Shown here: one piece after another, positions 1 to 15,378 of the stretch
Position numbering within the stretch: the stretch's first letter is position 1
Layout: each line of letters begins with the position of its first letter
DNA from: a virus
Taxonomy: Duplodnaviria; Heunggongvirae; Uroviricota; Caudoviricetes
Virus record (IMG/VR): IMGVR_UViG_2579778535_000004
Coordinates: 1 to 17,059 of that record
Strand: one strand, 5' to 3'
Length of the DNA stretch: 17,059 nucleotides
Program-made: the position numbers and the translations under genes
Notes under the pieces: model-generated
What the model was told of the DNA's origin: nothing
What the model saw: only the letters and a program-made list of their open reading frames with translations
The model's database searches: none

Positions 1-304
1 CTTCTCCCAAACCAAGGTTTTCGAGAGCCGTTTTCACCGTGCCATCCGATTTGATATCACCAAACGGATTCTTGCGGCTTAACAGCAGCGCACGAAGCGC
101 GGTAAGCAGCTGGTCATGCCGCCCCTTCTCCAGGCTGGCACCGGATGCCTCCACCACGCTGCAGAGTTCTTCCTGCAACATGTCAAAGTAGTCATCATCC
201 AGATCGGTGGCAGGTGTGCCGGTCTGGGGGTTACCACGGGTAAAACCGTTCTTACCCGCGCCGAACTTATCCTTCTGCGCGGTTTTCGTGTCTATACGAT
301 GCAT
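1..304 (-). CDS. Putative phage tail fibre protein, N-terminal part (gene continues beyond the window start)
   Basis: Open frame from ATG (revcomp of 302-304) to position 1, translating [29 protein letters not shown]... A GGAG lies 6 nt upstream of the ATG. The tail-fibre assignment is from remembered similarity only and is unverified. Confidence 0.4.
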
Positions 305-307
305 GGA

Positions 308-649
308 TTACTCCGGATATTTAAAAATTACGTAGGTATGCGAAGGGCAGAGTTTGTTAAGCACACACTCGACAACGGTGTCGCCCCAGATACGCAGTGC
401 GGAATCACAGGGACCGGGTTTATTCAGCGCGTCAATCAGGCGATCGCGCTGGTCAAAGCAGTCATCTCCCACCACATAAGCCGTGATGGACGGGCGGAAA
501 GTGATTTTCCCCAGGTCTTCGGTATAGGGTTTGTCGCGGTTCGGGTATTCGTGCGTTTCCACACGACGACCGGTTCCCGCACTTTCTTCTTCAACCTTAA
601 ACGGCACACCGCGAAATGACGCGTCCTGAAGTCTGTCTTTCCACGTCAT
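308..649 (-). CDS. Mu N-like DNA circularisation protein, N-terminal domain only (truncated, about 113 aa versus about 490 aa in Mu)
   Basis: The track ORF 308..691 contains [19 protein letters not shown]...HEYP, typical of the DNA-circulation N-terminal domain. The likely start is the ATG at 647-649, which has GGAG 6 nt upstream. The stop at 308-310 is followed immediately by the next gene. Confidence 0.5.
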
Positions 650-709
650 ATAAACTCCGTACATAAAAAATCCCACCGGAGTGGGACTCATTAACAGATT
701 AATTTTTCA

Positions 710-2545
710 TTACCTGCCAAAGCGCGTATAGCCAACATCATGGCTGACATCAAAACCGCTGGATCGCGTTTCCATAACCCGCATACCCGGAGGCGAATTC
801 ACAAAAGAGACCTTGATCTCACCATCAACTTTTGGCGCAGAAGCTTTGTTGATCATGAAGGGATTCGGGCCTGTGGCACCGGAGGCGTTGTTTGCCTGAG
901 CCGGATCCACCGCCGGATAAGGAGTGTATCCCCGTGGCGGTATTCCCGTCCCATAAGCATCATAAGCACCCGCGCCCCACTGCGCCGAGTTAATGGCATC
1001 GACCGTGTCACCGGAACTGTCGGTAAACCATTCAATAATCGGCTTCAGCTTGTCCCACATATCCTGAAACCACTTAACAACCGGTCCCCAGTTATTGATC
1101 ACCATCCCCAGCGGCGACCAGGCAAAAACCTTCTTCAGAAGTTCCCAGCCTGCCTCAAAATAAGGACCAATAGTTTCCCAGAGCTTCTTGAAATAAGGTC
1201 CGACAACATCCCAGTTAGTGATAATTAATCCCGCAGCCAGAGCAATCGCCGTCGCAATCATGCCAATCGGCGTCATCGACATGATCCTGCTGACAATACT
1301 GATGGCACCGCCCACGCCCATCAATCCCAGTTTCAGAATCGCAAGACCGGCAGCAAGCCCGACGACGCCGCGAATAACCCGGGGATTTTCATCCGCAAAC
1401 TTCGTGAATTTCTCCCCCAACTCCCCCAGCCACTGCGTGATGTTCTTAGCGTCACCAGAAAATGCGCCGCCAATAGCCGCAAGGCCGTTAGTTGCGGTCC
1501 CCGTCATTGCCTCCCACAGGTTGGACAGCGTACCAAGCTGGGCCTGAACACGTTTATTCAGGCTGGCCTGTTTATTCATCTTCTGCTGGATCTGATCGTA
1601 GCCATCCTTTCCTTTATCGATCAGCGCATTGACCACCTGAAGGGTTTCGGCATCATCACCAAATATTGCCTTAAGTACACCGGTTCGCTTAACGTCGGTC
1701 AGTTTTCGCAGCTTTGCCAGTTGCCTGAACATGTTATCAAGACCGCCAAAACTCCCTTTGCCATCAGTAAAATCGAGCTGTACCCCGAGTTTCTGGCGGG
1801 CCATGATTTTATTGACGTCCCTGATTTTCTTAACGCTTAATCCGGACTGGATAACTTTTCGCAGGGCATTACCTGCCGACTCCCCGTTCATCCCCATTTG
1901 ATCCATCATGACACTGATGGGGGCAAGACTCTGTGCAGCCTGAAGACCGTCCTTGTTCACCATCTTCAGAACAGAGCTGGTTTTAGTGAAGAATGACAAC
2001 ATGTTGGTGTCGTCAACGCCCAGATAAAACGCCTTCTGAATTGTGTCGAACAGCCCCATCATGTCTTCTGAGGCCGTTCCGGTAGCATCCTGCATCTTTG
2101 CAGCAAACTCAGCAGCCGCTTCCGGTGTTTTTTTCAGTTGTACCGCAAGATAAGCTGTCGCTTTACCCACACCACCAAGAATGTTTTCTGCCGGGATCCC
2201 CTGACGCACCAGCATCTGCATCATGTTCTGGAAATCAGCCGTTGTACCGGGTAGCTGGTTACCCAGGCCAATAGCCAGTTTATTGATGTCCTGAAAGCTC
2301 TTTCCAACCTCGCCGTTCGCATCCATCATGGCGACTTTCAGCCCGGTGGCGGCGTTTTCCTGATCGGCATAAGATTTCAGGGAAAGCGTCAGACCTGCTG
2401 CCAGTCCGCCACCAAGCGCCAGCCCACCCTGTGACGCTTCTTCCGCCTGGCGTTTAAATCCCCGGATTTTCTTTTGCATTTTCGACAGCGCGGGAGAAAG
2501 CCTGTCGACACCGGTGATCAACGCCTTAAGCTCAAATTCAGCCAT
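710..2545 (-). CDS. Tail tape measure protein
   Basis: 611-aa ORF directly downstream of the chaperone pair. It has an Ala/Gly/Gln-rich helical N-terminal half and hydrophobic, Trp-rich C-terminal segments typical of tape measure proteins. Confidence 0.85.
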   Translation of the reverse strand: MAEFELKALITGVDRLSPALSKMQKKIRGFKRQAEEASQGGLALGGGLAAGLTLSLKSYADQENAATGLKVAMMDANGEVGKSFQDINKLAIGLGNQLPGTTADFQNMMQMLVRQGIPAENILGGVGKATAYLAVQLKKTPEAAAEFAAKMQDATGTASEDMMGLFDTIQKAFYLGVDDTNMLSFFTKTSSVLKMVNKDGLQAAQSLAPISVMMDQMGMNGESAGNALRKVIQSGLSVKKIRDVNKIMARQKLGVQLDFTDGKGSFGGLDNMFRQLAKLRKLTDVKRTGVLKAIFGDDAETLQVVNALIDKGKDGYDQIQQKMNKQASLNKRVQAQLGTLSNLWEAMTGTATNGLAAIGGAFSGDAKNITQWLGELGEKFTKFADENPRVIRGVVGLAAGLAILKLGLMGVGGAISIVSRIMSMTPIGMIATAIALAAGLIITNWDVVGPYFKKLWETIGPYFEAGWELLKKVFAWSPLGMVINNWGPVVKWFQDMWDKLKPIIEWFTDSSGDTVDAINSAQWGAGAYDAYGTGIPPRGYTPYPAVDPAQANNASGATGPNPFMINKASAPKVDGEIKVSFVNSPPGMRVMETRSSGFDVSHDVGYTRFGR

Positions 2546-2956
2546 GTGTGCGTTTCTCCTGCTCTATCCTGTTTGCCTGACTGACCAGTAAGGGAATTTC
2601 ACTGATCGGCATATTCAGCAATTCGAAAGGATTAATGCGCCAGTAACTGGCGCAGTCAAAGAAGCGATCAGTGAGGTATTCAGCCGTCAGGCCTGGAGGA
2701 AAAAACCAGCCACAAGCCACGCCGCTGCATTCAGGTCTGCCGGAGACATCTGGTCGACAGAGCTTTGCGGCACTTTCGCCAGCCGCACAATGTATTTCGA
2801 TACCACATGCGCCAGAAGTCTGACGGACTCATCCTGATTCATCTGGTAGGGATACCCCAGCTCGCGGACATCTTTCCCGGTGGGCTCATCAAACTCCAGT
2901 ACGGAGAGTGTCTCGCCATGAGCGGTAATCGGTTTCTTTAACTCAAGCTCTTTCAT
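2538..2956 (-). CDS. Tail assembly chaperone long form made by programmed -1 frameshift
   Basis: The -1 frame from the slippery site (plus-strand A-run 2701-2706) stays open to the stop at 2538-2540 and matches the C-terminal 55 aa of track ORF 2538..2720 (FFPPGLTAEYL...). The product ends 8 nt inside the tape-measure start. This is the arrangement conserved in phage tail chaperone genes. Confidence 0.55.
2687..2956 (-). CDS. Tail assembly chaperone (short product)
   Basis: 89-aa ORF between the tube and tape-measure genes. Its start overlaps the tube stop as TAATG. It ends just after a T TTT TTC slippery run. Confidence 0.75.
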   Translation of the reverse strand: MKELELKKPITAHGETLSVLEFDEPTGKDVRELGYPYQMNQDESVRLLAHVVSKYIVRLAKVPQSSVDQMSPADLNAAAWLVAGFFLQA

Positions 2957-3312
2957 TACTGGTAATCCCCTTCTTCACCGTGGAACTCAAGATCAACCGT
3001 CCCTTCTTCGGCATTATGGTTTGCTTCGCCGTGCAGCCAGGCAGACGACAGTACATAGACCTGACCGTTCGCCAGCTCGGCTGTGATGGTCATCTCATCA
3101 GACGAGGTGATTTTGCTCACCGGAAAATTCTTCGGCACCTTGAAGGTCCCTTTAACATAAGGCGCACGGTGAGTTTCCTTGCGGTCCACTGAACCGTCCA
3201 GGCCGATGATGTCATCATTGACCGTCCTGTTCATGGGCACCTCAATGCCGCCGGTCAGCGATAGCTGCTGACCGTCAATTTTGAAATAACAGGTTCCCCC
3301 GATACGGGCCAT
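2956..3312 (-). CDS. Tail tube protein (Mu gpM-like)
   Basis: 118-aa ORF placed immediately upstream of the chaperone and tape-measure genes. It has an AGGAG ribosome-binding site, and an upstream reading frame ends TAATG on its start. Confidence 0.65.
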   Translation of the reverse strand: MARIGGTCYFKIDGQQLSLTGGIEVPMNRTVNDDIIGLDGSVDRKETHRAPYVKGTFKVPKNFPVSKITSSDEMTITAELANGQVYVLSSAWLHGEANHNAEEGTVDLEFHGEEGDYQ

Positions 3313-3583
3313 TATGCGGACTCCTCTGAATACTGAAGACGGAACTGGTTAACCACGGCAAAGACACGCAACTGGTTAACATAGTCAGGCGGGAACAGCG
3401 TGTTCAGGCGGTTCGGATCGCTGGCATCACGCTCCACAACCAGGTACTGCTTAAAAAGTTCGTAGTTTTCCACGATCCCCGCACGCTCAAGCTGACGGTA
3501 GCGATGGTGTATTGAGGCTGGCTATCTTCCTTCGCGAAGGATGCAAGGTCTTCAAACTGCTTAGCTGTAAGAACCACTGTCAT
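3313..3583 (-). pseudogene. Gene remnant read in two frames, possibly the 3' end of a tail sheath gene at a deletion junction
   Basis: Minus-strand ATG at 3583 opens a 59-codon frame (MTVVLTAKQFEDLASFAKEDSQPQYT...) that stops at 3404. A second frame, open from about 3521, carries protein-like sequence (...ELFKQYLVVERDASDPNRLNTLFPPDYVNQLRVFAVVNQFRLQYSEESA) and ends TAATG on the tube start, but has no ATG. Confidence 0.3.
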
Positions 3584-3595
3584 ACCTCTGTCGTT

Positions 3596-3619
3596 AAAAA
3601 ACCTCGCTATTGCGAGGTT
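3596..3619 (-). terminator. Intrinsic terminator-like hairpin at the end of the lysis cassette
   Basis: Minus strand reads AACCTCGC-AATA-GCGAGGTT followed by TTTT. The Rz1 stop codon lies in the loop. Confidence 0.45.
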
Positions 3620-3864
3620 CGCGATTGCTCAATCGTTCGGATGTCCGCTTTATCTCTGTTACACTGCCCCAGCGCCAACAACAAGCTGACATTCAAATCC
3701 AAACTGCCTCCATAGGTCAGCGGCTCAGGAATAGCTGGTTGCAGTGTTTCAGTGGTCAGATTCGCCGGTAATGGCACCGCTGGAACTGGCACGTAAACTG
3801 TCCGCGTACTTCCGCAACCGGTCAGCAGCGGCAGCAGGCACAGCACGTGAAGCACAATCATCAT
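3607..3864 (-). CDS. o-spanin (Rz1-like outer-membrane lipoprotein)
   Basis: Alternate frame beginning inside the Rz gene: MMIVLHVLCLLPLLTGC with an LTGC lipobox, then a proline-rich stretch. About 38 codons are embedded in Rz and the frame runs on past the Rz stop. Confidence 0.6.
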   Translation of the reverse strand: MMIVLHVLCLLPLLTGCGSTRTVYVPVPAVPLPANLTTETLQPAIPEPLTYGGSLDLNVSLLLALGQCNRDKADIRTIEQSRTSQ

Positions 3865-4141
3865 CCGCAACAGCCATTTTGATATCTTCCTGGGTTCTCT
3901 GTGACTCCAGTGTGCTCTGCTGTTTTGCATGCTGGTTAGCCTCCAGTACTGTATTGACGATTTGCAGTGATTGCAGGACGTTATTGGTAATGGCAGTTGC
4001 CGATTTGGCATTTTGTACAGCCTCATCAGCACGTTTCTTTTCGTGCTGATATTTGCTGTAGTAGTAGTTGGCTGACCAGATGAAAGAACTGACGACAGTA
4101 AAAAGGAAAGCAGCGATAACCAGCTTATAGCTTAACTTCAT
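3749..4141 (-). CDS. i-spanin (Rz-like)
   Basis: 130-aa ORF with an N-terminal transmembrane helix (LVIAAFLFTVVSSFIW) and a charged, helical remainder. It starts within the 3' end of the endolysin gene. Confidence 0.7.
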   Translation of the reverse strand: MKLSYKLVIAAFLFTVVSSFIWSANYYYSKYQHEKKRADEAVQNAKSATAITNNVLQSLQIVNTVLEANQHAKQQSTLESQRTQEDIKMAVADDDCASRAVPAAAADRLRKYADSLRASSSGAITGESDH

Positions 4142-4601
4142 TTACCACCCCACCAGCCTCTTTAAATCGGGCAATCAGGTCACCGATTTTATGTTCATAC
4201 TGACCGTAACCTGCACCAGGTAACGACGCCCAGATATTGCTGCACCGGTCGATTGCCTGACGGATATCGCCGCGATCAATCATCGGTAAAGCACCTCGCT
4301 CTTTAATCTGCTGCAATGCCACTGCGTCCTGGCTTTTGGGGGAGAAGTCTTTCAGAGCAAGCTGTTTACGGTATGCATCCCACCAACGGGAAAGAAGCTG
4401 GTATCGCCCGGCAGCCGTTGATTTGAGTTTTGGGTTCAGCGTGACAAGTTTGCGAGGATGATCGGAGTAATCAGTGAACAGTTCGCCTCCCACAATAACG
4501 TCATAACCGTGGTTACATGTCGGTTGCCGTCCGTTATCAGTTCCTTCTGACCATGCCACCATATCGAGGAAAGCTTTACGCTGGGAATTTAGTACCTGCA
4601 T
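4125..4601 (-). CDS. R: Endolysin, lambda R-like lytic transglycosylase
   Basis: The 158-aa translation is close to identical to lambda R as I remember it (NSQRKAFLDMVAWSEGTDNGRQ...GYDVIVGGELFTDYSDHPR...DRCSNIWASLPGAGYGQ). Confidence 0.9.
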   Translation of the reverse strand: MQVLNSQRKAFLDMVAWSEGTDNGRQPTCNHGYDVIVGGELFTDYSDHPRKLVTLNPKLKSTAAGRYQLLSRWWDAYRKQLALKDFSPKSQDAVALQQIKERGALPMIDRGDIRQAIDRCSNIWASLPGAGYGQYEHKIGDLIARFKEAGGVVNEVKL

Positions 4602-4604
4602 AAA

Positions 4605-4931
4605 TTACTCCTTAGAGCCACCAAACTTATTACCGATTACTCTCATTGCAGCCCCACGAATAGCATCGACACCGATCAACCCAACGCCACCACCAATGGC
4701 AACAGAAAGCGATTTAGGCCATCCGACATACTCAAGAGCGGATGCAAAAGTCAGCGTCAGAGCGCCACAGAGTAGAATTTCGAGTGTTTTTCGCTTCCAG
4801 CCACCACCACCGCCAAAATAGGCAATGCGCAAACCAGCCATAACAATCGACATAATCACTGCGCCCAGCGGTGTGTCTCCACGCCACCAGCTCTGGACCA
4901 ACTCCAGCCAGGTATTTGGGTTATGAGGCAT
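4605..4931 (-). CDS. Holin
   Basis: 108-aa ORF immediately upstream of the endolysin. It has two to three hydrophobic helices and a charged C-terminus, with GAGGTGAGAG upstream of the ATG. Confidence 0.7.
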   Translation of the reverse strand: MPHNPNTWLELVQSWWRGDTPLGAVIMSIVMAGLRIAYFGGGGGWKRKTLEILLCGALTLTFASALEYVGWPKSLSVAIGGGVGLIGVDAIRGAAMRVIGNKFGGSKE

Positions 4932-5082
4932 TTGTAGTTATCTCTCACCTCGCTGATACAGCAGGTGCAAATTGAGGAAACATCATGTACCGCAAATCAG
5001 AAGCGGAAACGTCAAAGAAGCCGAGTCAATGGATAACTGCGGGATAGACCAGGCCCAACGAATCCCTAGGCCCAGAAACGAC

Positions 5083-5105
5083 AAAACCCGCTCGACGGCG
5101 GGTTT
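5083..5105 (-). terminator. Perfect 8-bp-stem hairpin, possible tR'-like terminator of the late leader
   Basis: AAACCCGC-6 nt loop-GCGGGTTT. On the minus strand the stem is followed by TTTTGTCGTTTCT. It sits between the cassette and the holin. Confidence 0.3.
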
Positions 5106-5151
5106 AAGCTGTGTGGCGAAGTAACCACTCTTAACAGATTACAATGATTTT

Positions 5152-5179
5152 TGCGTACGCGTTAGCATTTTCGTAAAAT
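5152..5179 (+). promoter_or_regulatory. Candidate sigma70 promoter for the nuclease-methyltransferase cassette
   Basis: TTGCGT at 5152-5157, a 16-nt spacer, then TAAAAT at 5174-5179, about 30 nt upstream of the ATG at 5211. Found by eye only. Confidence 0.25.
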
Positions 5180-5210
5180 ACATTACCTTGCAACCATTTC
5201 AGTATAAAAA

Positions 5211-7001
5211 ATGAGCACAGAATTAAAACTAAAGAAAATTATGGCATCGTCTAAAATTGAGCCATTTATTAGACATATTCGTTTTCCTTTTTTTAAAAAC
5301 CTTGCAGAGGGTAGCAAGATTGATTTTGAGTATCCAATTACAGCATTAGTTGGTCAAAACGGAACCAATAAAAGTTCTGTTTTAAGAGCCCTATTCGGTT
5401 CTCCAAACAACTATTCTCTGGGTAGCTTATGGTTTTCTACAGATGTAGATGAGATTAAAGATGGTGGTCGTTCTAGATTTATTTATGGATATTATGACAA
5501 AGCTACTGATTCAATTGTTGAAGTAATTAAAACTCGAATCTCTAAAGAAAATGATCCTGATTACTGGGAACCATCCAGACCATTAAAATCCGACAACATG
5601 GCTCCAATGCCTAGTACAACAATCTCAACCAATCAACTAAGGACTAGGTGGAAAGCTATTGACAAAAATGTAATATATTTAGATTTCAGAGCAACTATCA
5701 GTGCATTTGATAAGTTCTTTTATCACTCTGATTTTCATACATACCCTAAGAAAGATTATCTTAGAAAACGCAGTCAGATGCTAAAAGACATTATAGATAA
5801 CGATCTTAAAAAATATCAACCTCATAAAGGAAAAAAAGACAAGCTATTTGTTAACACTTTATTAGAAAAAAGTAAGGTAGAGGCAATCAGCAAGATTTTA
5901 GGTCGCAAATACACAAGCATCCGCCTTATTGAACATAGCTTATTCACTAATGACAAAGCTCCCACAATTATTCTTCAATCAGAAAACTTAAAATATTCTG
6001 AAGCTTTTGCAGGCAGTGGGGAATTTGCTGTATCTATATTAGTGCATAAACTAATGGATAGCCCTGATGCATCTTTAATTCTGCTAGATGAACCTGAAGT
6101 ATCACTTCACCCTTCTGCTCAATGTCAATTGATGGAATTTTTATCAGAACAAGCACTTAAAAAGAAACATCAAATTGTCATATCCACACATTCATCAACA
6201 ATAGTAAAAGACTTGCCTAAAAATGCCATAAAATTATTCTGTCTGAATGATAAAATAGGAAAGGTTGATGTTCTTCAAAATGTCAGTCCAGAAGAATCTT
6301 TCTTTATTCTTGGTGAACGCATTGATAAAAGAACCGTTATTGTAGAAGATCGGTTAGCGAAGAGGTTTGTAGAAAAGGCGCTTAAAGCGGGTGGTGAAGC
6401 ATTATTAAACTCCTTCGAAGTAAAACATGTTCCTGGAGGAGCGGGAAGTATTCTTCAAACTTTGGCTGTGCCTTTATGTGTTGCCAATGTTAAAAACGTT
6501 ATTTTCTTATTAGATGGTGACCAATCGAGAACTGATGATTATCCAACTTCTGATTCCATACCAGAAAATCAAAACACAAACCTTCAAAACATCATAAAAA
6601 AAATAACCAATCAAGATATAAAATTTAGTTGTGATGGTTCTAATGGCTCATCAAATAACAATCAAAAATACAAAATGCAAAGAAATTTTATCGATTTCAT
6701 CCACGATAAAATTGCTTTTCTTCCTGTTTATACTCCTGAAGCATTTCTTATTGAGAATGTTCATGGTGATTATAAAGAATATAAAGATCAAATCCCCAAA
6801 AACATTCAAGATGCTAAAGAAATCACCAAAGAACTTTGTAAGTTAGACACAGGGTTGGAGAACGTTACCAGTGACGATATCTTTGAAACACAAATCAGAA
6901 TTCTTAATAAAATACCAAATAATCATGAAGTGTTAACAAAAACTCGAGAGTTGCTGCAAATCTTTTTAGATAATGATACTATCAGACCAAGAGTGAGGTA
7001 G
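5211..7001 (+). CDS. Predicted OLD/Gabija-GajA-like nuclease: N-terminal ABC-type ATPase fused to a C-terminal TOPRIM domain
   Basis: 596-aa ORF with a P-loop LVGQNGTNKSS, Walker B ILLDEPEVSLHP, a STHS H-loop-like motif, and a C-terminal TOPRIM pattern (TVIVEDRLAKRF...NVIFLLDGDQS, about 60 aa apart). Hand counts give about 27-30% GC here versus about 45-55% in flanking lines. Confidence 0.65.
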   Translation: MSTELKLKKIMASSKIEPFIRHIRFPFFKNLAEGSKIDFEYPITALVGQNGTNKSSVLRALFGSPNNYSLGSLWFSTDVDEIKDGGRSRFIYGYYDKATDSIVEVIKTRISKENDPDYWEPSRPLKSDNMAPMPSTTISTNQLRTRWKAIDKNVIYLDFRATISAFDKFFYHSDFHTYPKKDYLRKRSQMLKDIIDNDLKKYQPHKGKKDKLFVNTLLEKSKVEAISKILGRKYTSIRLIEHSLFTNDKAPTIILQSENLKYSEAFAGSGEFAVSILVHKLMDSPDASLILLDEPEVSLHPSAQCQLMEFLSEQALKKKHQIVISTHSSTIVKDLPKNAIKLFCLNDKIGKVDVLQNVSPEESFFILGERIDKRTVIVEDRLAKRFVEKALKAGGEALLNSFEVKHVPGGAGSILQTLAVPLCVANVKNVIFLLDGDQSRTDDYPTSDSIPENQNTNLQNIIKKITNQDIKFSCDGSNGSSNNNQKYKMQRNFIDFIHDKIAFLPVYTPEAFLIENVHGDYKEYKDQIPKNIQDAKEITKELCKLDTGLENVTSDDIFETQIRILNKIPNNHEVLTKTRELLQIFLDNDTIRPRVR

Positions 7002-7004
7002 ATA

Positions 7005-8045
7005 ATGGCTAAAAAGATACACGTTTACGATTTCTTTTCCGGCTGCGGCGGAACCAGTGTAGGCCTAAAAGCGGTGGGAATGGAAATTATTTTCGGTTTA
7101 GATATTGATCTAGACTCCGCTAACACCTTTAAAATGAATAATCCATTTGCACATTTTATCAATGGTGATATCAAAGATACACACGTTGAGGAAATTAAGC
7201 ATCTGGTTTGTGCGTCAACACAAAGCAAAGCTCTAACCCTATTTTGTGGTTGTGCTCCATGTCAACCATTCTCGAAACAAAATAAAATACGGAACGAGGA
7301 TGATCCGAGAAAAGATCTGCTTACTGAGTTTGCACGGTTTGTCTCTTATTATACGCCAGACTTTGTACTGGTAGAGAATGTACCAGGAATCCAAAATGTC
7401 GATATTAACAATGGAAATTTCCAGAAATTTCTTGAGATTTTAGCACATCATCACTACAACGTTGATTTTGGTGTGATTCCTGCGTTGTGGTTCGGGGTTC
7501 CTCAAACACGTGAACGTTTTGTTTTACTGGCGTCAAAACACACGAATATTAAGCTTCCATCACAAACTCATGATGGGTTAAAAACTCCGTATGCAACTGT
7601 CAGAGACTGGATCGGCGGATTACCTCCTATTGCTGCCGGTGAAACTCATAAAGATGTTATGGATCATACAGCAGCCAAACTATCTGATCTAAATATTAAA
7701 CGTATTAAAGCGACTCCTGAGGGAAAAGGTAGAGAATCTTGGCCTGAAGAACTTATACTAAAATGCCATAAAAAATATAAAGGGCATACTGATGTTTATG
7801 GACGGCTTTCTTGGGACAAACCAGCAAGTGGATTAACAACTAGATGTATAAGCTATTCGAATGGACGTTTCGGACATCCAGAGCAAGATAGGGCTATTTC
7901 TGTTAGAGAGGCTGCGTTATTACAGACTTTCCCATTAGACTATTCCTTCACAGGCTCTTTAGTCTCGAAAGCCAAACAGATAGGGAATGCAGTCCCTCCC
8001 AAGATGGCTGAAGCTCTTGGAAGGGCTATCATCGCATCACTTTAA
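7005..8045 (+). CDS. DNA (cytosine-5)-methyltransferase
   Basis: Motif I FSGCGG, motif IV GCAPCQPFS with the catalytic Cys, motif VI LVENVPG, motif VIII PQTRERF, motif X QIGNAVPP, in canonical order. The ATG is 4 nt after the upstream stop, so the two genes are probably co-translated. Confidence 0.9.
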   Translation: MAKKIHVYDFFSGCGGTSVGLKAVGMEIIFGLDIDLDSANTFKMNNPFAHFINGDIKDTHVEEIKHLVCASTQSKALTLFCGCAPCQPFSKQNKIRNEDDPRKDLLTEFARFVSYYTPDFVLVENVPGIQNVDINNGNFQKFLEILAHHHYNVDFGVIPALWFGVPQTRERFVLLASKHTNIKLPSQTHDGLKTPYATVRDWIGGLPPIAAGETHKDVMDHTAAKLSDLNIKRIKATPEGKGRESWPEELILKCHKKYKGHTDVYGRLSWDKPASGLTTRCISYSNGRFGHPEQDRAISVREAALLQTFPLDYSFTGSLVSKAKQIGNAVPPKMAEALGRAIIASL

Positions 8046-8055
8046 AAGCGGAGCC

Positions 8056-8412
8056 CTAGAGGGCTTCGCCTAACAATAATAGAATACCTGATATAAACCC
8101 TATAGCTCCCTGAAGCTCTTTTCTAATTGCTCCATCAGAGCATTTTCTTTTCTTAGCAATGGTGCGTAATGAGATACCAATCACAAAATGAGCAATGATC
8201 AGCTCATATTCTTCTGGTTTATACTTCCGCAGGCGGGCGACACAGCCATCAATCATGATGCCTTCATCATCATCACACTGAATCCGGGACTTTCTGCCAT
8301 GAGGTAAAAGCCCCTTGAAGCCAGCGGCTACCGGTTGCCAATCCACACCACTGTTCTCTGCCGCAGCCCACGCTCCCCAACGGTCTAATACTTCATACAT
8401 ATCACACATCAA
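8056..8412 (-). CDS. Late-gene antiterminator Q (Phage_antitermQ family)
   Basis: 118-aa protein with VLDRWGAWAA...AAGFKGL...CDDDEG...C, matching the Q family of several lambdoid prophages as I recall it. It sits between the nin-like genes and the lysis region. Confidence 0.8.
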   Translation of the reverse strand: MMCDMYEVLDRWGAWAAAENSGVDWQPVAAGFKGLLPHGRKSRIQCDDDEGIMIDGCVARLRKYKPEEYELIIAHFVIGISLRTIAKKRKCSDGAIRKELQGAIGFISGILLLLGEAL

Positions 8413-8426
8413 CTTTCTCCACCAAA

Positions 8427-9422
8427 TCAGGCTAGCACACCAATTGCCAACGCACGGTCGATAAAACGAAATATCAGCTCCAGCTGGGAGCCATACTTCT
8501 CTTCAAATGCCACGGTATCCGCATGCAGCTCGTCGTGATGCTTTCTGCACAAAGGCAACACAAAGAGGTCATGCGCTTTTGTACCCATTCCGCCCTGACC
8601 GTGGCCTATCAGGTGGTGGGGATCATCAGCAGGTTTTCCACAACATGCGCACGGCTGCGTCTTAACCCAGCGCGTGTACTTTTCATTAACCCAGCGGTGA
8701 CGTTTTGGGCGTAACATAAAAGACTCCGGCGACTCCGGATCCACTTTCAGCGCCAGCACCTTTTTCGCCTTATCCTGGATGATGCTGGTGGCAGGAACCG
8801 AAGGCACAAGGTCACTTTCCCGGGTAACAGACGGCACAACAGGCTTCGGTAATCTCAGTGCCTTACGGGCTGCACTTTCCGGTAAGGCATCCGCCAGATC
8901 ATTACGAATCAGCCACCAGCACAGTTCCGGCATTGTCACAACATGACTGTCATCAAAACCGAGATCCCGACGCACAACAGACAACACCCAGCGGGCACAG
9001 TTATCCGTTGCCATTGATTCCAGCCGTTCCGTGAACTGATCGCGCAGCTGGTTATCGCAGTGCCAGCACAGACGGATTGCGCCCGGAGCGTGTCGCATTG
9101 TTGTCATGTTCTCGCTGTGCCAGTCGGAATGAGGCCACTGGCAGCCTTTTTCACGAAGTAACCAGCTTTCAAGACATTCCACGCCACCAGCACGACGGAT
9201 CACTGCCTCATTGCGGAACACGGCCAGAACGGCAGGATCATCCGCCAGCGGTTGTGATGCCGCCGGAACAGCACCACTGGCGAAAGATGAATAACGTTCC
9301 GGCTCAGGCTCCAGCAGGACACGCCCCTGCATAAACAGGGGCATCAGCTCTGAACCTGGTCTGAACAATACGATCCCCATACGCGGGGCAATTTCAGGGG
9401 TCAGTAGTGCTCTCACGGTCAC
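8427..9422 (-). CDS. DUF968-family phage protein with an HNH-like zinc-finger C-terminus
   Basis: 331-aa ORF whose C-terminus reads CACCGKPADDPHHLIGHGQGG...LPLCRKHHDELH. Its position next to Q matches the usual placement of DUF968 genes in lambdoid prophages. Confidence 0.7.
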   Translation of the reverse strand: MTVRALLTPEIAPRMGIVLFRPGSELMPLFMQGRVLLEPEPERYSSFASGAVPAASQPLADDPAVLAVFRNEAVIRRAGGVECLESWLLREKGCQWPHSDWHSENMTTMRHAPGAIRLCWHCDNQLRDQFTERLESMATDNCARWVLSVVRRDLGFDDSHVVTMPELCWWLIRNDLADALPESAARKALRLPKPVVPSVTRESDLVPSVPATSIIQDKAKKVLALKVDPESPESFMLRPKRHRWVNEKYTRWVKTQPCACCGKPADDPHHLIGHGQGGMGTKAHDLFVLPLCRKHHDELHADTVAFEEKYGSQLELIFRFIDRALAIGVLA

Positions 9423-9423
9423 C

Positions 9424-10233
9424 TCAATGAACGGTATCGAGCAGCTTTAACAGCTCAGGGAATCGGGATTCGAAGAAATGCGGCTGCGTCTCGCGCGGAT
9501 TTGCGGGACTGGTGATGTTCTTGCCGAACATGCAGCCTTTCGCTGTCAGTGACCAGAATTTTTTGATGTTGTTAATCGCGGTACGGCTGTATCGTTCGCG
9601 CTGCTCGACGATCCCCAGTTTCACCATCTGGTGATATGCCTGATTAGCCGTCAGGCGGATACCATACTGTTTCAGCAGTGCACTCAGTGACAGTGTCGGG
9701 CGACTTGAGCCATCGTGTGCATCAGCAGGAGCATCAATGGCATAGCGCGGTGCCAGATTCGGTAAGCCAACAGCCTCCTGGAGTTTCTGACAGGCACCAA
9801 GCACTGAAGAGTTAGACAGGTTTAACTCCCTGCGCATAAAGTCCAGCAGAATCACTCCAGCCTGCATCTTGTCAGCAGCCTGCCCGGATAATTTTTCCGA
9901 TGCGCTGGTTACCATATCGAAAGTACGGATCACCTTCAGATGGAATGACGGGCTGATCCACATTGCATAGGCATACACCAGTTCTTTGCAGACATACGTC
10001 CCCTGGTTATTTCCGCCATTAATGACGCTAACTGGTTGATTTTGTTCCAGAGGTGGAATTCCACCCTCGGTGAAAAGTTGTTCAATCAATTCACAGGTTT
10101 GCTTATTGGAGAGCCAGTATTTCGGGCGGTTTTTTTGTTCTCCCCCGGCTGCCCTGTGCAGATCGTTCAGGCTGTAACGCCCATAAGCATCACGACGAAC
10201 TTCAATACCATCAATGACCATCAGATTATTCAT
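9424..10233 (-). CDS. KilA-N domain protein (antirepressor-like)
   Basis: The N-terminus MNNLMVIDGIEVRRDAYGRYSLNDLHRAAGG...KYWL is a typical KilA-N domain. The internal ATG at 10231-10233 is preferred over the track start because AGGAG lies about 7 nt upstream. Confidence 0.7.
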   Translation of the reverse strand: MNNLMVIDGIEVRRDAYGRYSLNDLHRAAGGEQKNRPKYWLSNKQTCELIEQLFTEGGIPPLEQNQPVSVINGGNNQGTYVCKELVYAYAMWISPSFHLKVIRTFDMVTSASEKLSGQAADKMQAGVILLDFMRRELNLSNSSVLGACQKLQEAVGLPNLAPRYAIDAPADAHDGSSRPTLSLSALLKQYGIRLTANQAYHQMVKLGIVEQRERYSRTAINNIKKFWSLTAKGCMFGKNITSPANPRETQPHFFESRFPELLKLLDTVH

Positions 10234-10252
10234 ACTTCGTTTCTCCTCTTGA

Positions 10253-10642
10253 TCAGGCGGCTGCACCCGCCGTTTTCTCGTACTTACTGATAGTGATCTC
10301 GACCTTCCCTTCCGGGATAACCGGTCCCCACTCCACCAGCATTCTTTTCACCTGACTGTCGTCTTCCCACACACCCGCGTGGGTCAGGGCGTCAAACAGC
10401 GCCTTGTTATAGTTGTCCAGATCGCGGATCCGGTTATCCGGAGGAAACAACACGATCTCCACTGAAGCAGGTGCCGACGTTGGTTTTGGCAGACGACGTA
10501 ACTGCTCAACTATTGCTGCACACGCCGCGCTCTGGAATTTGCGCCCCGCCGCGCTTATCAGGCTCTTACCTGCAAACGCCCCTTGGTTGGGGTGTCGCCA
10601 GTACGTGTTCACGCTGGGCGGAAAAGGCAGTATTAGCTTCAT
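10253..10642 (-). CDS. rusA: RusA-family Holliday junction resolvase
   Basis: 129-aa protein with LPFPPSVNTYWRH...RDLDNYNKALFDALTHAGVWEDDSQV, the RusA signature. Its start forms an ATGA overlap with the upstream gene. Confidence 0.85.
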   Translation of the reverse strand: MKLILPFPPSVNTYWRHPNQGAFAGKSLISAAGRKFQSAACAAIVEQLRRLPKPTSAPASVEIVLFPPDNRIRDLDNYNKALFDALTHAGVWEDDSQVKRMLVEWGPVIPEGKVEITISKYEKTAGAAA

Positions 10643-10965
10643 ACTTTCAGCTCCCTCTCATGTAACCAGTGGGCTGCACGCAGCCTGGCGTTTTCCTCAC
10701 CGGCAAGCAGTGAGCGGATAATCCCGACCGCCTCGCTGTCGTCGTCCTTCACCGCGGTATGAAGCGTTATCCCCCGGGCCACGCCACGCTTTATCGTGAT
10801 GACGCCTTTTTTCTCCAGTGCGCGAAGATGCTCCACCGCTGCATTCACTGAACGGTATCCCAGCATGGTTGCCACCTCCTGATTGGTTGGCGGAAAGCCA
10901 CGCTCTTTCTGGTAAGAAATCAGCATATCCAGCACCTGCTGCTGGCATTGAGTTAACGTCGTCAT
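10639..10965 (-). CDS. LexA-like N-terminal DNA-binding domain protein with no peptidase domain
   Basis: MTTLTQCQQQVLDMLISYQKERGFPPTNQEVATMLGYRSVNAAVEHLRALEKKGVI parallels the LexA winged-helix domain. The start at 10963-10965 is chosen because it overlaps the upstream stop as TAATG. Confidence 0.6.
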   Translation of the reverse strand: MTTLTQCQQQVLDMLISYQKERGFPPTNQEVATMLGYRSVNAAVEHLRALEKKGVITIKRGVARGITLHTAVKDDDSEAVGIIRSLLAGEENARLRAAHWLHERELKV

Positions 10966-11459
10966 TACGCCCCCACGTAATTCCCTGACAGATACCACTC
11001 ATCACTCGATACAGCGCGCTTGCTGCTTTTCCGTAAACACTGCTCACGACGCGCCAGAAAATTGTTTCGTTCTGGCTGGGAGTGGCTTTCACGGAATGCC
11101 ACCACCCACACCGTTGCAGCACGACGGTATAAGCCCCTGGACTCCAGTTCTTCCGCCTGGCGGGTCAGGCACAAAATCTCCCGCGGGTCGTTAGTGCCGA
11201 CATAGAAATTGCGCACAGGTCTGGTTTCACGAACTGATTGCGGTTCCGCCTCCTGCGCTCTCTCAGTCAGGCGCGGGAAATGTCTGCGTGTATCCCCTTC
11301 ACAACGGTGAGCCACACGACCACTCTGACGTAACTTGCTTGCTGACTGCAGAACGCGCTGCCGTGAGTAACCTGCAAAAGCATCCGCAATGTCTCCGGAA
11401 GTACACCCCGGATGGGCTTCAATGAATTTCTGAACGTCATTCAAAAGACTCATGCTCAC
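10965..11459 (-). CDS. Putative PerC/Pch-like regulator
   Basis: The C-terminal half has RGLYRRAATVWVVAF...ARREQCLRKS, resembling the GLWRRAA-RW motif of PerC-family activators. This is a memory-based call and unverified. Confidence 0.4.
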   Translation of the reverse strand: MSMSLLNDVQKFIEAHPGCTSGDIADAFAGYSRQRVLQSASKLRQSGRVAHRCEGDTRRHFPRLTERAQEAEPQSVRETRPVRNFYVGTNDPREILCLTRQAEELESRGLYRRAATVWVVAFRESHSQPERNNFLARREQCLRKSSKRAVSSDEWYLSGNYVGA

Positions 11460-12397
11460 CCCCTGAATCCTGCCGGGATCTGGCTGTAGTCCACGTTGTC
11501 GTAACTGGCTTTGAAGTACGGGTCTTCGCGTTTTTCGGTGTACGTGCTGACGGACGGCGATAAGCGCAGGGAAAGCTCATCCCATTTTTCCCGCAGCTTC
11601 GACGGGCTGAGCACGTTACGGCACCAGAACGGATCGCGACTGACGCGGCTGTACATCTCGCAGATTTGTTTATGAGTACGACCATCCTGCACACACATCA
11701 GGCGAATTTCGTTTGCCCAGGCTGTCCAGTTCGGTTCTTTGGGACGAACCACCTCGCCGTCACATTCGGCGGCCTGCTCGTACAGGGCGATGATTTTTTT
11801 CCAGAGCCACTGTGCGCAGGTCAAATCATCCTGCGTTCCCCACTGGCGCTTTTTAGGGCTGAATACAACCGCATCAGGATGGCGAGTTAAAAACTCCTGT
11901 TCAGCCGTCTGCGTGTCCGGTTGCGAAGCGTCCGGACGAGAAGTTTTTTTATCTGACGGATCATGTTTTGATTTTACTGACGGATCCCCGCCAGATTCTG
12001 ACGGGTGAAAACCCGCTTTTTTGCCAGATTTCGACGCATCAAATTTTGACGGGTCAGATTTTGATGCGTCAGATTTTGACGGGTCAGAATCTGACAGTTG
12101 AGAAAATGCCGCTGCCTGAAGCTTCGCAACGTTAAGCTGATAAACATTCGACGCATTGCGGTTACCCTGGCGACGCGCCTTACGCGTTAACCAGCCTTCT
12201 GCTTCCAGCCGTGCGATAGCCGTCCTGACGGTACTCATCCCCGCGCCAATCTGACGGGCAATAGTTTCAATTGATGGCCAGCACACACCTTCGTCATTAC
12301 TGAAATCAGCCAGGCGGGCCATAATTGCCACGCTGGATAATTTCATGCCTGATGCAGCGCAACCATCCCATACATAGCCGGTTAATTTAGTGCTCAT
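11456..12397 (-). CDS. Replication initiator-like protein (N-terminal HTH domain, repeat-encoded linker, C-terminal domain)
   Basis: 313-aa ORF with an N-terminal winged-helix region and a central SKSD-type peptide repeat encoded by tandem DNA repeats. It occupies the position of a lambdoid O gene after the cro and CII-like genes. Confidence 0.55.
   Translation of the reverse strand: MSTKLTGYVWDGCAASGMKLSSVAIMARLADFSNDEGVCWPSIETIARQIGAGMSTVRTAIARLEAEGWLTRKARRQGNRNASNVYQLNVAKLQAAAFSQLSDSDPSKSDASKSDPSKFDASKSGKKAGFHPSESGGDPSVKSKHDPSDKKTSRPDASQPDTQTAEQEFLTRHPDAVVFSPKKRQWGTQDDLTCAQWLWKKIIALYEQAAECDGEVVRPKEPNWTAWANEIRLMCVQDGRTHKQICEMYSRVSRDPFWCRNVLSPSKLREKWDELSLRLSPSVSTYTEKREDPYFKASYDNVDYSQIPAGFRG
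11948..12098. repeat. Tandem 15-bp direct repeats (iteron-like) inside the replication initiator gene
   Basis: Five contiguous 15-bp units between 12024 and 12098 (TCAGATTTTGACGGG and variants), plus three degenerate copies back to 11948. They encode the linker of the initiator. Confidence 0.55.
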
Positions 12398-12406
12398 GAC
12401 CGACCT

Positions 12407-12745
12407 CTATTTCCCTGAATTTACGACGAAACTGTTCGAGCGGACTGAAGCACTCATGCTCATAGCCTTCGCGGAGGTAGATAACCCGTTGTGTTTCCGG
12501 TTCCCAACGAATGACTCTGACGGGCACTCCGTAGTGATCTTTGAACCAGCGGTTAACTTGTCGCAAAGGACTGTCTCCTTCTGCCGGTTGAAATCACCCA
12601 CAGCCCACTCTGCAAAGCTGTGGGTTACAATTTCCCTGTCACCTGGTACATTTACTGCATAGCAATACTCCACCTTCGCTTTTCCACCCGGTACAGGAAG
12701 CGCAATCAGTTGCGAGCGACGGTAGTGTGTTGTTAAACTGTTCAT
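12407..12745 (-). CDS. Hypothetical phage protein with an ambiguous 3' reading frame (possible frameshift)
   Basis: The N-terminal half ([53 protein letters not shown]) looks protein-like. The Ser-rich tail of the listed frame looks less so than an alternative frame (12387-12593, ...[56 protein letters not shown]) that ends overlapping the next gene's start. Confidence 0.4.
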
Positions 12746-13305
12746 GCGTTAGTTTCTCCACAGTCACGACACGCCACGGCGCCCGGAGCTGCACACTCGC
12801 GGGCGTCATTACTTTCTGAAATGCAAAAGATTTTGTAGACCAGTGCTGCATGCTCCTGCAGCTTCGAAATTGAGAGATATAGCTCGTCGTTAATTGCTGT
12901 TTTCTCATGCGGTTCCACTACACCGTCTTCGATTGCTGAACGAATCTGTTTTGAATAACTGCCGATCTGTTCAATGACTTCCAGCAGACGCTGGTTAATA
13001 TCGGCGTTGTCCACATCCTCGACGTCAGGAAGAGACACAAATACGCCATTTGCAGACTGCGCCACAGCATCAGCAATGAAGTGAGTGCCACCAGCACGCT
13101 GTAAAACCATTGCCCATCCCAGCGGAAAAATCTGATCGCCATCTGCACGAAGGCGGTTGAATAAAGCGTTCTCTGTTACATCCAGCCAGTCAGCCGCTTC
13201 AGCGTAACCACCCGGCAACGCCGCGATAGTTTTTCTGACAGCTTTCACGTACCACTCAGGCTGTTTTTCTATTTTCCAGTGATGCTTACCCACGATTAGC
13301 CTCAT
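12742..13305 (-). CDS. Putative CII-like regulatory protein
   Basis: 187-aa ORF immediately downstream of the cro-like gene. The family assignment is from weak remembered similarity and position only. Confidence 0.4.
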
Positions 13306-13336
13306 CGTTCTGTGGTTAAAAATTGAAAGTGTTCTG

Positions 13337-13537
13337 CTAATCTTTCGGATAGATATCCGGTCTTAAGTCAGATTTCGTAATTGCACCTGACGTGCATTGC
13401 TCAAGTTTTTTAGCCAGCACAAAACTGGCTTTTTTATAGCCATTGAAAACCAGCCGTAAGTAGCCAGGTGTTGAGCCAACTTTTCCGGCCAACTCGCCCT
13501 GCTGTTCTTTGGTTAAAGAGTCCCAATACGCTTTCAT
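13337..13537 (-). CDS. Cro-like HTH regulator (YdaS-type)
   Basis: MKAYWDSLTKEQQGELAGKVGSTPGYLRLVFNGYKKASF...SDLRPDIYP. GGAGG lies 9 nt upstream of the ATG at 13535-13537. It is divergent from the CI-like gene. Confidence 0.65.
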   Translation of the reverse strand: MKAYWDSLTKEQQGELAGKVGSTPGYLRLVFNGYKKASFVLAKKLEQCTSGAITKSDLRPDIYPKD

Positions 13538-13591
13538 ACAATATGTACCTCCGGTGTACATACTACATGATTAAAATGAACCTTCAAGATA

Positions 13592-13612
13592 CTTGTACCT
13601 TAACGGTACAAG
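13592..13612. promoter_or_regulatory. Palindromic operator in the CI/cro divergent promoter region
   Basis: CTTGTACC-TTAAC-GGTACAAG, with perfect 8-bp arms, overlapping a candidate plus-strand promoter (TTGTAC, 17 nt, TTTAAT) whose start site would fall at the CI ATG. Confidence 0.5.
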
Positions 13613-13627
13613 GGTTTTAATTTCGTT

Positions 13628-14302
13628 ATGAAAACAATCCATGACATCCGGCGGTCTAACGCCAGAAAACTGAGAGATGGTGTAGGCGGGAATTCTTCCT
13701 TTGCCACTATGATTGATCGCGAGCCAACCCAGACCAGCAGGTTTATGGGAGATGGTGCTACTAAAAATATCGGTGACAGCATGGCACGACACATCGAAAA
13801 ATGTTTCGACCTGCCTGTCGGATGGCTCGATCAAGAACACCAGACAACCAACATCACAAAAAAACCTGATGTTTCAATCACTAATAAACAAATCACATTA
13901 GTCCCTGTCATATCATGGGTACAGGCCGGAGCATGGAAAGAAGTTGGATATTCTGAGGTTGATTTGAGCACAGCAGAAACGTATCCCTGCCCTGTACCCT
14001 GTGGGGAAATGACTTATATCTTGCGGGTGATAGGTGATTCAATGATTGATGAGTACCGCCCGGGAGACATGATTTTTGTCGATCCTGAAGTACCTGCCTG
14101 CCACGGTGACGACGTTATTGCATTGATGCACGATACAGGTGAAACCACCTTCAAAAGGTTGATAGAAGATGGGACACAGCGTTATCTCAAAGCGTTAAAC
14201 CCAAACTGGCCTGAGCCTTACATTAAGATCAACGGTAATTGCTCTATAATTGGAACTGTGATTTTCTCAGGAAAACCAAGAAGATACAAAATCAAAGCCT
14301 AA
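13628..14302 (+). CDS. CI-like repressor (HTH plus S24 LexA-type autopeptidase domain)
   Basis: 224-aa ORF with an N-terminal HTH, an Ala-Gly cleavage site (VQAGAWKE), the catalytic Ser in VIGDSM and a Lys in TFKRL. Confidence 0.85.
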   Translation: MKTIHDIRRSNARKLRDGVGGNSSFATMIDREPTQTSRFMGDGATKNIGDSMARHIEKCFDLPVGWLDQEHQTTNITKKPDVSITNKQITLVPVISWVQAGAWKEVGYSEVDLSTAETYPCPVPCGEMTYILRVIGDSMIDEYRPGDMIFVDPEVPACHGDDVIALMHDTGETTFKRLIEDGTQRYLKALNPNWPEPYIKINGNCSIIGTVIFSGKPRRYKIKA

Positions 14303-14314
14303 TCAATGTTTATG

Positions 14315-14337
14315 AACCTGCTTCGGCAGGTTTTTTT
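14315..14337 (+). terminator. Rho-independent terminator after the repressor gene
   Basis: AACCTGC-TTCG-GCAGGTT followed by a run of seven T. Confidence 0.65.
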
Positions 14338-14341
14338 ATAC

Positions 14342-14374
14342 TTGACAATGTACCTTTGAGATACATAATGTATC
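14342..14374 (+). promoter_or_regulatory. pL-like promoter with an overlapping palindrome (candidate operator)
   Basis: TTGACA at 14342-14347, a 16-nt spacer, then CATAAT at 14364-14369. The palindrome GATACAT-A-ATGTATC (14360-14374) covers the -10. Confidence 0.4.
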
Positions 14375-14473
14375 CAAGAGAAACAAAAAACAGGCAGGAC
14401 GCCCACGAAGTAGCCGCCGGTGGCGTATGAATGACCGGATGATTCGTTAAATACTATGTGTAAGAGAGCGCAA

Positions 14474-14677
14474 ATGAACCGTTATTTCACATGCTCGTTT
14501 TGTGGCGCAAACGAGCTGCAGGCAAAAAAAATCATCGCCAAAGGCGGAAAAGATGAAGTTGCTATCTGCTCTGAGTGCGTAGTCTTGTGTGTCGGGGCAT
14601 TAATCAATATCAGCACAACTATTCAGTTCACACCAAATGAGAATGCGCCTTTAGATGCGCGGAAATCTGGAGGTTAA
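14474..14677 (+). CDS. Small zinc-ribbon protein resembling the ClpX N-terminal zinc-binding domain
   Basis: FTCSFCGANELQAKKIIAKGGKDEVAICSECVVLC parallels the ClpX zinc-binding domain (CSFCG ... ICDECV-LC). The start is taken at the internal ATG at 14474, preceded by AGAGAG. Confidence 0.5.
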   Translation: MNRYFTCSFCGANELQAKKIIAKGGKDEVAICSECVVLCVGALINISTTIQFTPNENAPLDARKSGG

Positions 14678-14685
14678 AGAACAAA

Positions 14686-14961
14686 ATGAAAGTCCAGATT
14701 TTAAACAATAGTGGTGAAGTCGTTTGGTCATACGACATAGCCGCTCCTGTAGATCAGAGCGGCGATAGCTGGACCAATGGGAAACATCAGATTATGGCTG
14801 GAGTTGTGTTCTCTTTACGCCGTGCTTTAGAACAGGCTGAAGTCTTTCCATCAGACCCTGAATGGAAATGGCCTTTTTCTATTTGTCCAAATTCGGAGAG
14901 TACATTTCAGAAAATTGGTCAGAAAGTCGCACTCGAAGAGCATCAGCCAACTGTTTCCTGA
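14686..14961 (+). CDS. Hypothetical protein, second gene of the left operon
   Basis: 91-aa ORF with GGAGG about 12 nt upstream. Its 3' end overlaps a convergent ORF by about 83 nt. Confidence 0.45.
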   Translation: MKVQILNNSGEVVWSYDIAAPVDQSGDSWTNGKHQIMAGVVFSLRRALEQAEVFPSDPEWKWPFSICPNSESTFQKIGQKVALEEHQPTVS

Positions 14962-15124
14962 TTTTTTCAGGTAACTCGTCGGCATCGCAGAAACAACAAC
15001 GCTCGATCATGTTGAAAGCCGATTCGTAGAACTGTTTTTGCTGAGTGTCGCTGAGACAGGAAAAGAGCGACGTTACGATGATTTTATTAATTGCATTATC
15101 AAGTTCTTTTTCATCAAAAGTCAT
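14879..15124 (-). CDS. Hypothetical protein, convergent with the left operon
   Basis: 81-aa ORF with AAGGA about 8 nt upstream of the ATG at 15122-15124 and protein-like composition. Confidence 0.45.
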   Translation of the reverse strand: MTFDEKELDNAINKIIVTSLFSCLSDTQQKQFYESAFNMIERCCFCDADELPEKIRKQLADALRVRLSDQFSEMYSPNLDK

Positions 15125-15378
15125 TTGATTTTCCTTTTATGTATACGGGCTTAAAAGGATACCACCGAGCCTGAAGTGGTGAAAAGACAGGCACATAACA
15201 GCTAAGTATTTTCAACCAGAGAGAATCCTTAGCGTTGTGGTGAATGCGGCTCAGCGCACACGGGTTAAGGTTGAGGCTGACAGTCGACCTTCTGTGGATA
15301 CCCACCCGCCTGGTGTGCAACCTTCGCCAGGCACCGGGAGGCACCCGGCACCACAACTTTATGCTGTGTGTAGTCTTA

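Follow-up and report, generated by a model that had tools for sequence, protein, structure and literature searches.

An Asparagine-Type Walker A Motif Marks a Large Clade of Methyltransferase-Linked OLD-Family ATPase-Toprim Nucleases and Is Probably a Functional Variant

Few residues in biology are as highly conserved as the glycine that precedes the Walker A lysine, and a predicted ATPase that lacks it raises the question of whether its active site still works. Such a case was flagged by a first-pass annotation of a 17,059-nucleotide stretch of a Caudoviricetes record (IMG/VR IMGVR_UViG_2579778535_000004, positions 1 to 17,059; hereafter the window), which read the P-loop of an ATPase-nuclease as GQNGTNKSS, with Asn in place of the glycine, and proposed that the ATPase might be altered, regulatory or inactive. 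Our comparative analysis leads us to favor, with reasonable though not high confidence, the interpretation that this residue, Asn53, is a lineage-specific but functional Walker A variant of an OLD-family ATPase-Toprim nuclease, and that the ATPase bearing it is probably working rather than broken.

The protein encoded by the ORF in question (Table 1) includes the segment ...YPITALVGQNGTNKSSVLRALFG..., and the motif with Asn before Lys is exactly as it had been reported, down to the codons gga acc aat aaa agt; the span originally noted for it, 5335-5380, covers residues 42-57 and contains the motif. The protein fails the strict Walker A consensus GxxxxGK[ST] while still presenting the lysine, the serine and the first two glycines. 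In phmmer alignments, the segment VGQNGTNKSSVLRA pairs with VGPNGAGKTTILRA of the Thermus scotoductus OLD protein (6p74) and likewise with IGENGSGKSSIFEA of Rad50 (3aux), such that Asn53 falls on the Gly preceding the Walker A Lys. In the AlphaFold model, residues 48-54 are placed between a strand (43-48) and a helix (54-62) with a pLDDT of 92-95, which is the standard location of a P-loop. A search of the 596-aa protein for a second [GA]xxxxGK[ST] yielded none, and its sole GK dipeptides, in HKGKKD and KIGKVD, are unrelated to such a motif. Hence, both a second Walker A and an alternative register with an intact GxxxxGK[ST] were rejected, and the alignments to 6p74 and Rad50 confirm the initial reading. 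Many database entries give a 586-aa version of the protein that starts at Met11 (MASSKIEPF...), i.e., at 5241 rather than at the start used in the window, 5211.

Table 1. Features of the ATPase-Toprim gene and its methyltransferase partner (window coordinates; the Asn and Gly classes are those of the 163-member alignment)
Feature	Position	Strand	Remarks
ATPase-Toprim ORF, 596 aa	5211-7001	+	ABC-type ATPase (~18-360) fused to C-terminal Toprim nuclease (~370-560)
Walker A/P-loop G48-Q-N-G-T-N53-K54-S-S (GQNGTNKSS)	5352-5378	+	Coding DNA GGTCAAAACGGAACCAATAAAAGTTCT
Asn53 codon AAT	5367-5369	+	Walker A position 6, normally Gly in P-loop NTPases
ABC signature-like motif A267-G-S-G-E271	6009-6023	+	G268, G270 and E271 100% in Asn and Gly classes
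Walker B LILLDEPE (D293, catalytic E294)	6075-6098	+	Aligned to 6p74 Walker B; D293/E294 100% in both classes
D-loop SLHP	6102-6113	+	After Walker B
H-loop T326-H327-S328	6186-6194	+	H327 100% in both classes
Toprim acidic motif V378-E379-D380	6342-6350	+	E379 and D380 100% conserved
Toprim DxD motif D435-G-D437	6513-6521	+	D435 and D437 100% conserved
C5 cytosine DNA methyltransferase	7005-8045	+	First base lies 3 nt beyond the stop of the ATPase-Toprim ORF; Pfam DNA_methylase 8e-59; PADLOC MTase_II 5e-91

Several independent lines of comparison place this protein. Pfam recovers AAA_15 (1e-15), AAA_21 (2e-13) and SMC_N, and the PADLOC profiles recover HEC-04 as the best match (2.3e-36, with the best stretch covering positions 155-386 of the 494 in the profile and the N-terminal P-loop region lying outside it), followed by ATPase-Toprim_I-B (3.5e-25) and many generic ABC-ATPase defence profiles, such as PtuA, AriA, GajA and Old. 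An AlphaFold2 model (mean pLDDT 90) compared with the PDB by Foldseek retrieves TsOLD (6p74) first and then GajA, with full-length matches over ~600 aligned columns (E ~1e-13); the C-terminal half matches the Toprim region of OLD and GajA by fold. All of the ABC/SMC-like features, namely the Walker B, a signature-like motif, the D-loop and the H-loop His, are present, and the AGSGE stretch is, by its position and by analogy, the putative ABC signature motif. The protein thus displays the hallmark architecture of the OLD family, an N-terminal ABC ATPase followed by a Toprim domain at the C-terminus in which a Glu and a DxD motif are conserved, and the profile matches, the structural matches and the invariant Toprim residues together identify it as an OLD-family ATPase-Toprim nuclease. 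The kinship with OLD, GajA and AriA and the intact Asp-Glu pair of the Walker B (D293-E294), both of which had been proposed from the letters of the sequence, are accordingly upheld by the Pfam, PADLOC and phmmer results and by the LILLDEPE motif, respectively.

The substitution is by no means peculiar to this protein. Among its 120 nearest database homologues (100% to ~44% identity), Asn precedes the Lys in all 115 with readable N-termini. An exhaustive search of 50%-identity cluster representatives gave 395 clusters at E <= 1e-30, and the best 150 of these display N in 88, G in 52 (53 upon adding one canonical G-K sequence that lay outside the search pattern), S in five, C in one and H in one. 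When these 150 representatives were combined with 13 closer homologues from the first search, the resulting alignment of 163 full-length members, a sample biased towards the clade of the query, showed N in 104, G in 52 (a third of the members), S in five and C and H in one each at position 53. A few members of the Asn clade feature His (GQNGCHKSS), Cys (GKNGSCKSS) or Ser at this position (P0138, P0135, P0127, P0141, P0158, P0169 and P0184). To judge from these sequences, more than one polar side chain is acceptable at Walker A position 6 in this family.

We applied Fitch parsimony to the position-53 states on a simple neighbor-joining distance tree of the 163 members, which required nine state changes as against ~50 with shuffled tip states. 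A tblastn search of plasmids retrieved only distant relatives (<=28% identity), which served as out-groups and carry the canonical Gly, e.g., GKNGTGKST in a Clostridium estertheticum plasmid protein (28% identity) and GSNGTGKST in pEntH10407. With the tree rooted on the Clostridium protein, Gly is the ancestral state, and a single 112-tip clade holds 103 N, five S, two G, one H and one C; Asn has been kept in 92% of this 112-cluster clade, which spans many phyla. As reconstructed from the tree and alignment, this shows that Gly changed to Asn once, in the ancestor of a large clade, and that Asn was thereafter kept by purifying selection. A single nucleotide step leads from Ser (AGY) to either Asn (AAY) or Gly (GGY), in agreement with the minor states observed. 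The recurrence of Asn in a subclade, for which an alignment against the OLD, GajA and AriA homologues had been suggested, is therefore real: it marks a large, nearly monophyletic clade that emerged from a Gly-bearing ancestor.

The same data dispose of one alternative, that Asn53 is a mutation of this strain alone, an error of sequencing or a by-product of the base composition (GGT to AAT) of its surroundings. The cassette (within 4801-8400 of the window) is indeed AT-rich, with 33-39% GC as against 50-55% in the flanking lambdoid prophage. However, all close homologues and hundreds of independent contigs share this residue. Pattern scanning of GTDB, with each species represented by one genome, further identified at least 451 loci with relatives of this gene, and in the best 80 of these (L001-L080), which we examined, the Asn codons are AAT in 14 cases and AAC in 13. 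AAC is retained in high-GC actinobacteria, such as Micromonospora, Nocardia, Mycolicibacterium and Mycobacterium, and Asn is therefore no by-product of AT-richness. Taken with its presence in 115 of 115 near homologues and 104 of 163 family members, the usage of both codons refutes this explanation, to which we assign a practically negligible probability.

Another alternative is that the domain is a dead pseudo-ATPase, which merely acts as a scaffold for the Toprim nuclease. Its sole support is the loss of the near-invariant Gly itself. Against it, Lys54, D293, E294, H327 and the GSGE motif are invariant across the 104 Asn-type members, down to ~35% identity. Indeed, in the 104 members of the Asn class and the 52 of the Gly class alike, conservation is 100% at G48, N50, G51, K54, G268, G270, E271, D293, E294, Q321, H327, E379, D380, D435 and D437. 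Neither of two measures by which the Asn and Gly classes were compared indicates that constraint on the ATPase relaxed after the substitution: within the classes, ATPase domains are on average 44.4% versus 45.0% identical in pairwise comparison, and the ratio of ATPase to Toprim conservation is 1.64 versus 1.67. The Asn-type members thus conserve their ATPase domain better than their Toprim domain, and no worse than the Gly-type relatives do; moreover, the AAT/AAC turnover at the Asn codon is synonymous. The inactive option raised in the first-pass annotation does not withstand this combination of invariant catalytic residues, equal constraint and synonymous turnover, and we regard a dead ATPase as very improbable. 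Therefore, as far as can be judged from conservation, the ATPase of this cassette should be regarded as a functioning component of the nuclease, and by extension annotators should be wary of calling such ATPases inactive from the motif alone.

How an asparagine could serve at this position is suggested by the geometry of the loop. In a survey of P-loop NTPases, Walker A residues 4-7 alternate between right- and left-handed helical conformations, with position 6 being left-handed and "exclusively" Gly (PMC11959459); the Asn53 variant is hence structurally non-trivial and unusual. Position 6 would have to be left-handed helical for its NH to point at the beta-phosphate. Of all residues other than glycine, Asn has the strongest tendency to enter the left-handed helical region, which offers a simple reason why Asn can replace Gly here, with Ser, His and Cys doing so only occasionally. 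As the non-glycine that adopts this conformation most readily, Asn would preserve the phosphate "nest", and ATP would still be bound and hydrolysed. The ATP-dependent engagement of two ABC heads would then continue to gate the Toprim nuclease in the manner of other OLD proteins, and the side-chain amide of Asn53 may add a contact or tune affinity or turnover. An effect of the Asn-type P-loop on nucleotide affinity or rate is possible, as the altered or regulatory options of the first-pass annotation would imply.

Precedents from other P-loop proteins with a replaced glycine point in different directions. In small GTPases, replacement of the same Gly (G15A in Ras/Rac and G17A in RhoA) strongly lowers nucleotide affinity. 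The MCM helicases (Walker A GDPxx[A/S]KS), by contrast, are working P-loop ATPases that have another residue in place of the Gly preceding the Lys, as seen in the Ala at position 6 of the GDPGTAKS motif of PDB MCM5 chains; however, they belong to the AAA+ rather than the ABC branch, have Ala or Ser rather than Asn, and have no evolutionary link to the proteins considered here. Within the OLD family and its relatives, mutation of the Walker A Lys abolishes function in HEC-04 (K62A; bioRxiv 10.1101/2024.01.29.577857), P2 Old (PMC10568477) and the Vibrio cholerae OLD (K48; PMC12392090).

These considerations leave room for a third alternative, namely that the site is a slow or binding-only switch, in which ATP or another nucleotide serves as a ligand for regulation or sensing and is scarcely turned over, and the Toprim domain is gated by occupancy rather than by cycles of hydrolysis. 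The otherwise exclusive presence of Gly at position 6 (PMC11959459) makes a kinetic effect plausible, and ATP has a negligible effect on cleavage by TsOLD and only a slight one on that by P2 Old (PMC10568477), indicating that the ATPase and nuclease are loosely coupled in some OLD proteins. The neighboring position 52 also differs, being S/C in Gly-class members but T in those with Asn, and a slow, switch-like ATPase would itself be expected to conserve its catalytic residues. Nevertheless, it is usually the Glu of the Walker B or the His of the H-loop that is missing from degenerate ABC sites, whereas Glu294, His327 and the signature motif are retained throughout the Asn clade, with the constraint on the ATPase domain being equal in both clades. 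Furthermore, the occasional reversions to Gly and the Ser, Cys and His variants inside the clade suggest that position 6 is tolerant rather than specialized. No column of the alignment cleanly splits the two classes as a compensatory partner of Asn53 would; the best are 172 (H/F), 352 (V/F), 252 (T/S) and 52 (T/S-C), and such class-correlated columns are uninformative because there was essentially one evolutionary transition. We therefore see the switch as a minority possibility, though one to be taken seriously, and return to the functional variant as our preferred reading. The literature searched yielded no biochemical study of any member of the Asn clade. This large natural clade, which has long kept Asn with the rest of the site intact, offers a ready-made test of how strictly Gly is needed in ABC-type ATPases.

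The genomic context of the gene bears on what such an ATPase might do. It is followed by a C5 cytosine methyltransferase gene (Table 1) with intact FSGCGG, PCQPFS, ENV, QTRER and GNAVP motifs, and this linkage recurs across the family. The best 80 of the at least 451 related loci span Pseudomonadota, Bacteroidota, Actinomycetota, Bacillota, Acidobacteriota, Planctomycetota, Nitrospirota, Patescibacteria and others. In these 80, a C5 methyltransferase gene is directly adjacent in 53, co-oriented in all but one, and lies within 6 kb in a further 22, so that ~75 of the 80 are paired. In the Asn-class loci, the methyltransferase gene is mostly downstream, as in the window, and its product is much closer to that of the window (E 1e-108 to 1e-152) than are the methyltransferases of the Gly class; hence, the ATPase-Toprim/methyltransferase pair co-diverges. 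Three of the 80 loci (L034, L048 and L066) have no C5 methyltransferase gene within ~6 kb and are situated among other defence or mobile genes, their neighbors being a serine recombinase and an HNH protein, a GmrSD_N protein and a UvrD-like helicase, or DUF6339.

Certain Gly-class loci contain additional genes between the methyltransferase and the ATPase-Toprim. In Bacteroidota, six loci (L022:3694-4767, L026, L029, L035, L037 and L059) have a full R.HpaII-type restriction endonuclease in this place, as detected by PF09561 (5e-143) in L022, the only locus scanned, and as deduced from the same size and position in the others; there, the OLD-like protein would be one of three components and would share the nuclease role with another enzyme. 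Elsewhere in the Gly class, the insert is a ~550-aa GHKL ATPase (HATPase_c_3) with a C-terminal Hypoth_Ymh domain, joined in some loci by a ~990-aa HEF_HK/GHKL protein (inserted genes at L043:4276-5925, L012:4273-5922, L058:3837-5882 and L045:1367-4354).

The methyltransferase linkage suggests a restriction-like role for the ATPase-Toprim nuclease, and together the two genes may constitute a restriction-modification-like or defence module, which was inserted as an AT-rich segment into a lambdoid prophage. As in type II restriction-modification systems with C5 methyltransferases, the two genes are co-oriented and tightly spaced, code for a nuclease and a C5 methyltransferase, and form a horizontally mobile unit that is AT-rich relative to its host. 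The difference lies in the nuclease, which is an ATPase-Toprim protein with no known type II restriction endonuclease fold or match to a Pfam restriction endonuclease family; moreover, some of the related loci already carry a classical restriction endonuclease, R.HpaII.

Among the known OLD systems, four classes have been published: the single-gene (1), GajB-linked (2), retron-linked (3) and split PARIS (4) types (PMC10568477; PMC12392090). The Class 1 proteins (P2 Old, the Thermus scotoductus OLD 6p74 and the Vibrio cholerae OLD) share the N-terminal ABC ATPase and C-terminal Toprim in ~520-600 aa, the Walker A Lys, the Walker B D-E and the Toprim acidic residues, and 6p74 is the best PDB match by both Foldseek and phmmer. 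However, the sequence identity is only ~17%, the Class 1 Walker A has the canonical G-K rather than N-K, and these proteins are encoded by stand-alone genes, unlike the methyltransferase-coupled gene studied here. HEC-04/IbfA, the best PADLOC match with its partial coverage, also joins an ABC ATPase to a Toprim domain, and its defence activity needs the Lys of the Walker A as well as the acidic Toprim residues (bioRxiv 10.1101/2024.01.29.577857), but it is ~100 aa shorter and is a single-gene system for which no dedicated C5 methyltransferase partner is described. GajA of Gabija (Class 2) matches in fold over its full length (8u7i and 8x5i; E ~5e-13) and has the same domain order, but at an identity of ~14%; the neighboring gene in the window is the methyltransferase rather than a UvrD-like GajB gene, and a UvrD-like gene is found beside only one of the 80 related loci (L048). 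The ORF list of the window has no reverse transcriptase, which together with an ncRNA defines Class 3, and the fusion of the ATPase and Toprim domains in one ORF sets the protein apart from the AriA/AriB pair of Class 4. WonAB was likewise rejected as the same system, for WonA, an ABC ATPase, partners a PD-(D/E)xK nuclease and has neither a Toprim domain nor a methyltransferase.

The methyltransferase-paired OLD-type nucleases hence lie outside the four named classes, and the current OLD classification has no place for OLD-type nucleases that are systematically paired with cytosine methyltransferases; in the literature that we searched (OLD classes, the V. cholerae OLD, MORC/restriction-modification and Dnd), no description of a methyltransferase-linked OLD type was found. 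A bolder proposal, which we consider rather unlikely, is that the Asn-type P-loop marks the principal branch of a fifth, as yet nameless type of system within the OLD family, present in at least 451 bacterial species genomes, in which an ATP-driven Toprim nuclease serves as the restriction arm of a C5 methyltransferase module, with Asn conferring a distinct handling of the nucleotide (for example, firmer binding, a lower turnover rate or a different nucleotide preference) on which the distinction between self and foreign DNA depends in part.

In the window, the Q antiterminator gene (8412-8056) and the gene for the holin (4931-4605) flank the cassette, which is inserted antisense to them, with the holin-endolysin-Rz genes lying on the other side of it from Q; the methyltransferase and Q genes converge, with their stop codons only 10 bp apart. 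The cassette is present in eight of 5426 complete E. coli genomes. In the neighboring part of the window (710-4141), Rz (4141-3749) is directly followed by genes for the tail tube (3312-2956), the tail assembly chaperone (2956-2687) and the tape measure (2545-710), with no terminase or head genes between the lysis and tail genes, which suggests a mosaic or defective prophage. A promoter scan of the cassette gave sites no more numerous than in shuffled sequence, and a nucleotide search of phage records did not recover the cassette, with only a 180-bp upstream region being matched. Positions 5000-5180 of the window, upstream of the ATPase start, are 93-96% identical to unannotated DNA of the Shigella phages SfII and SfIV and contain a strong terminator-like hairpin (5105-5084, minus strand); this stretch is possibly the late-promoter/tR' region of the prophage.
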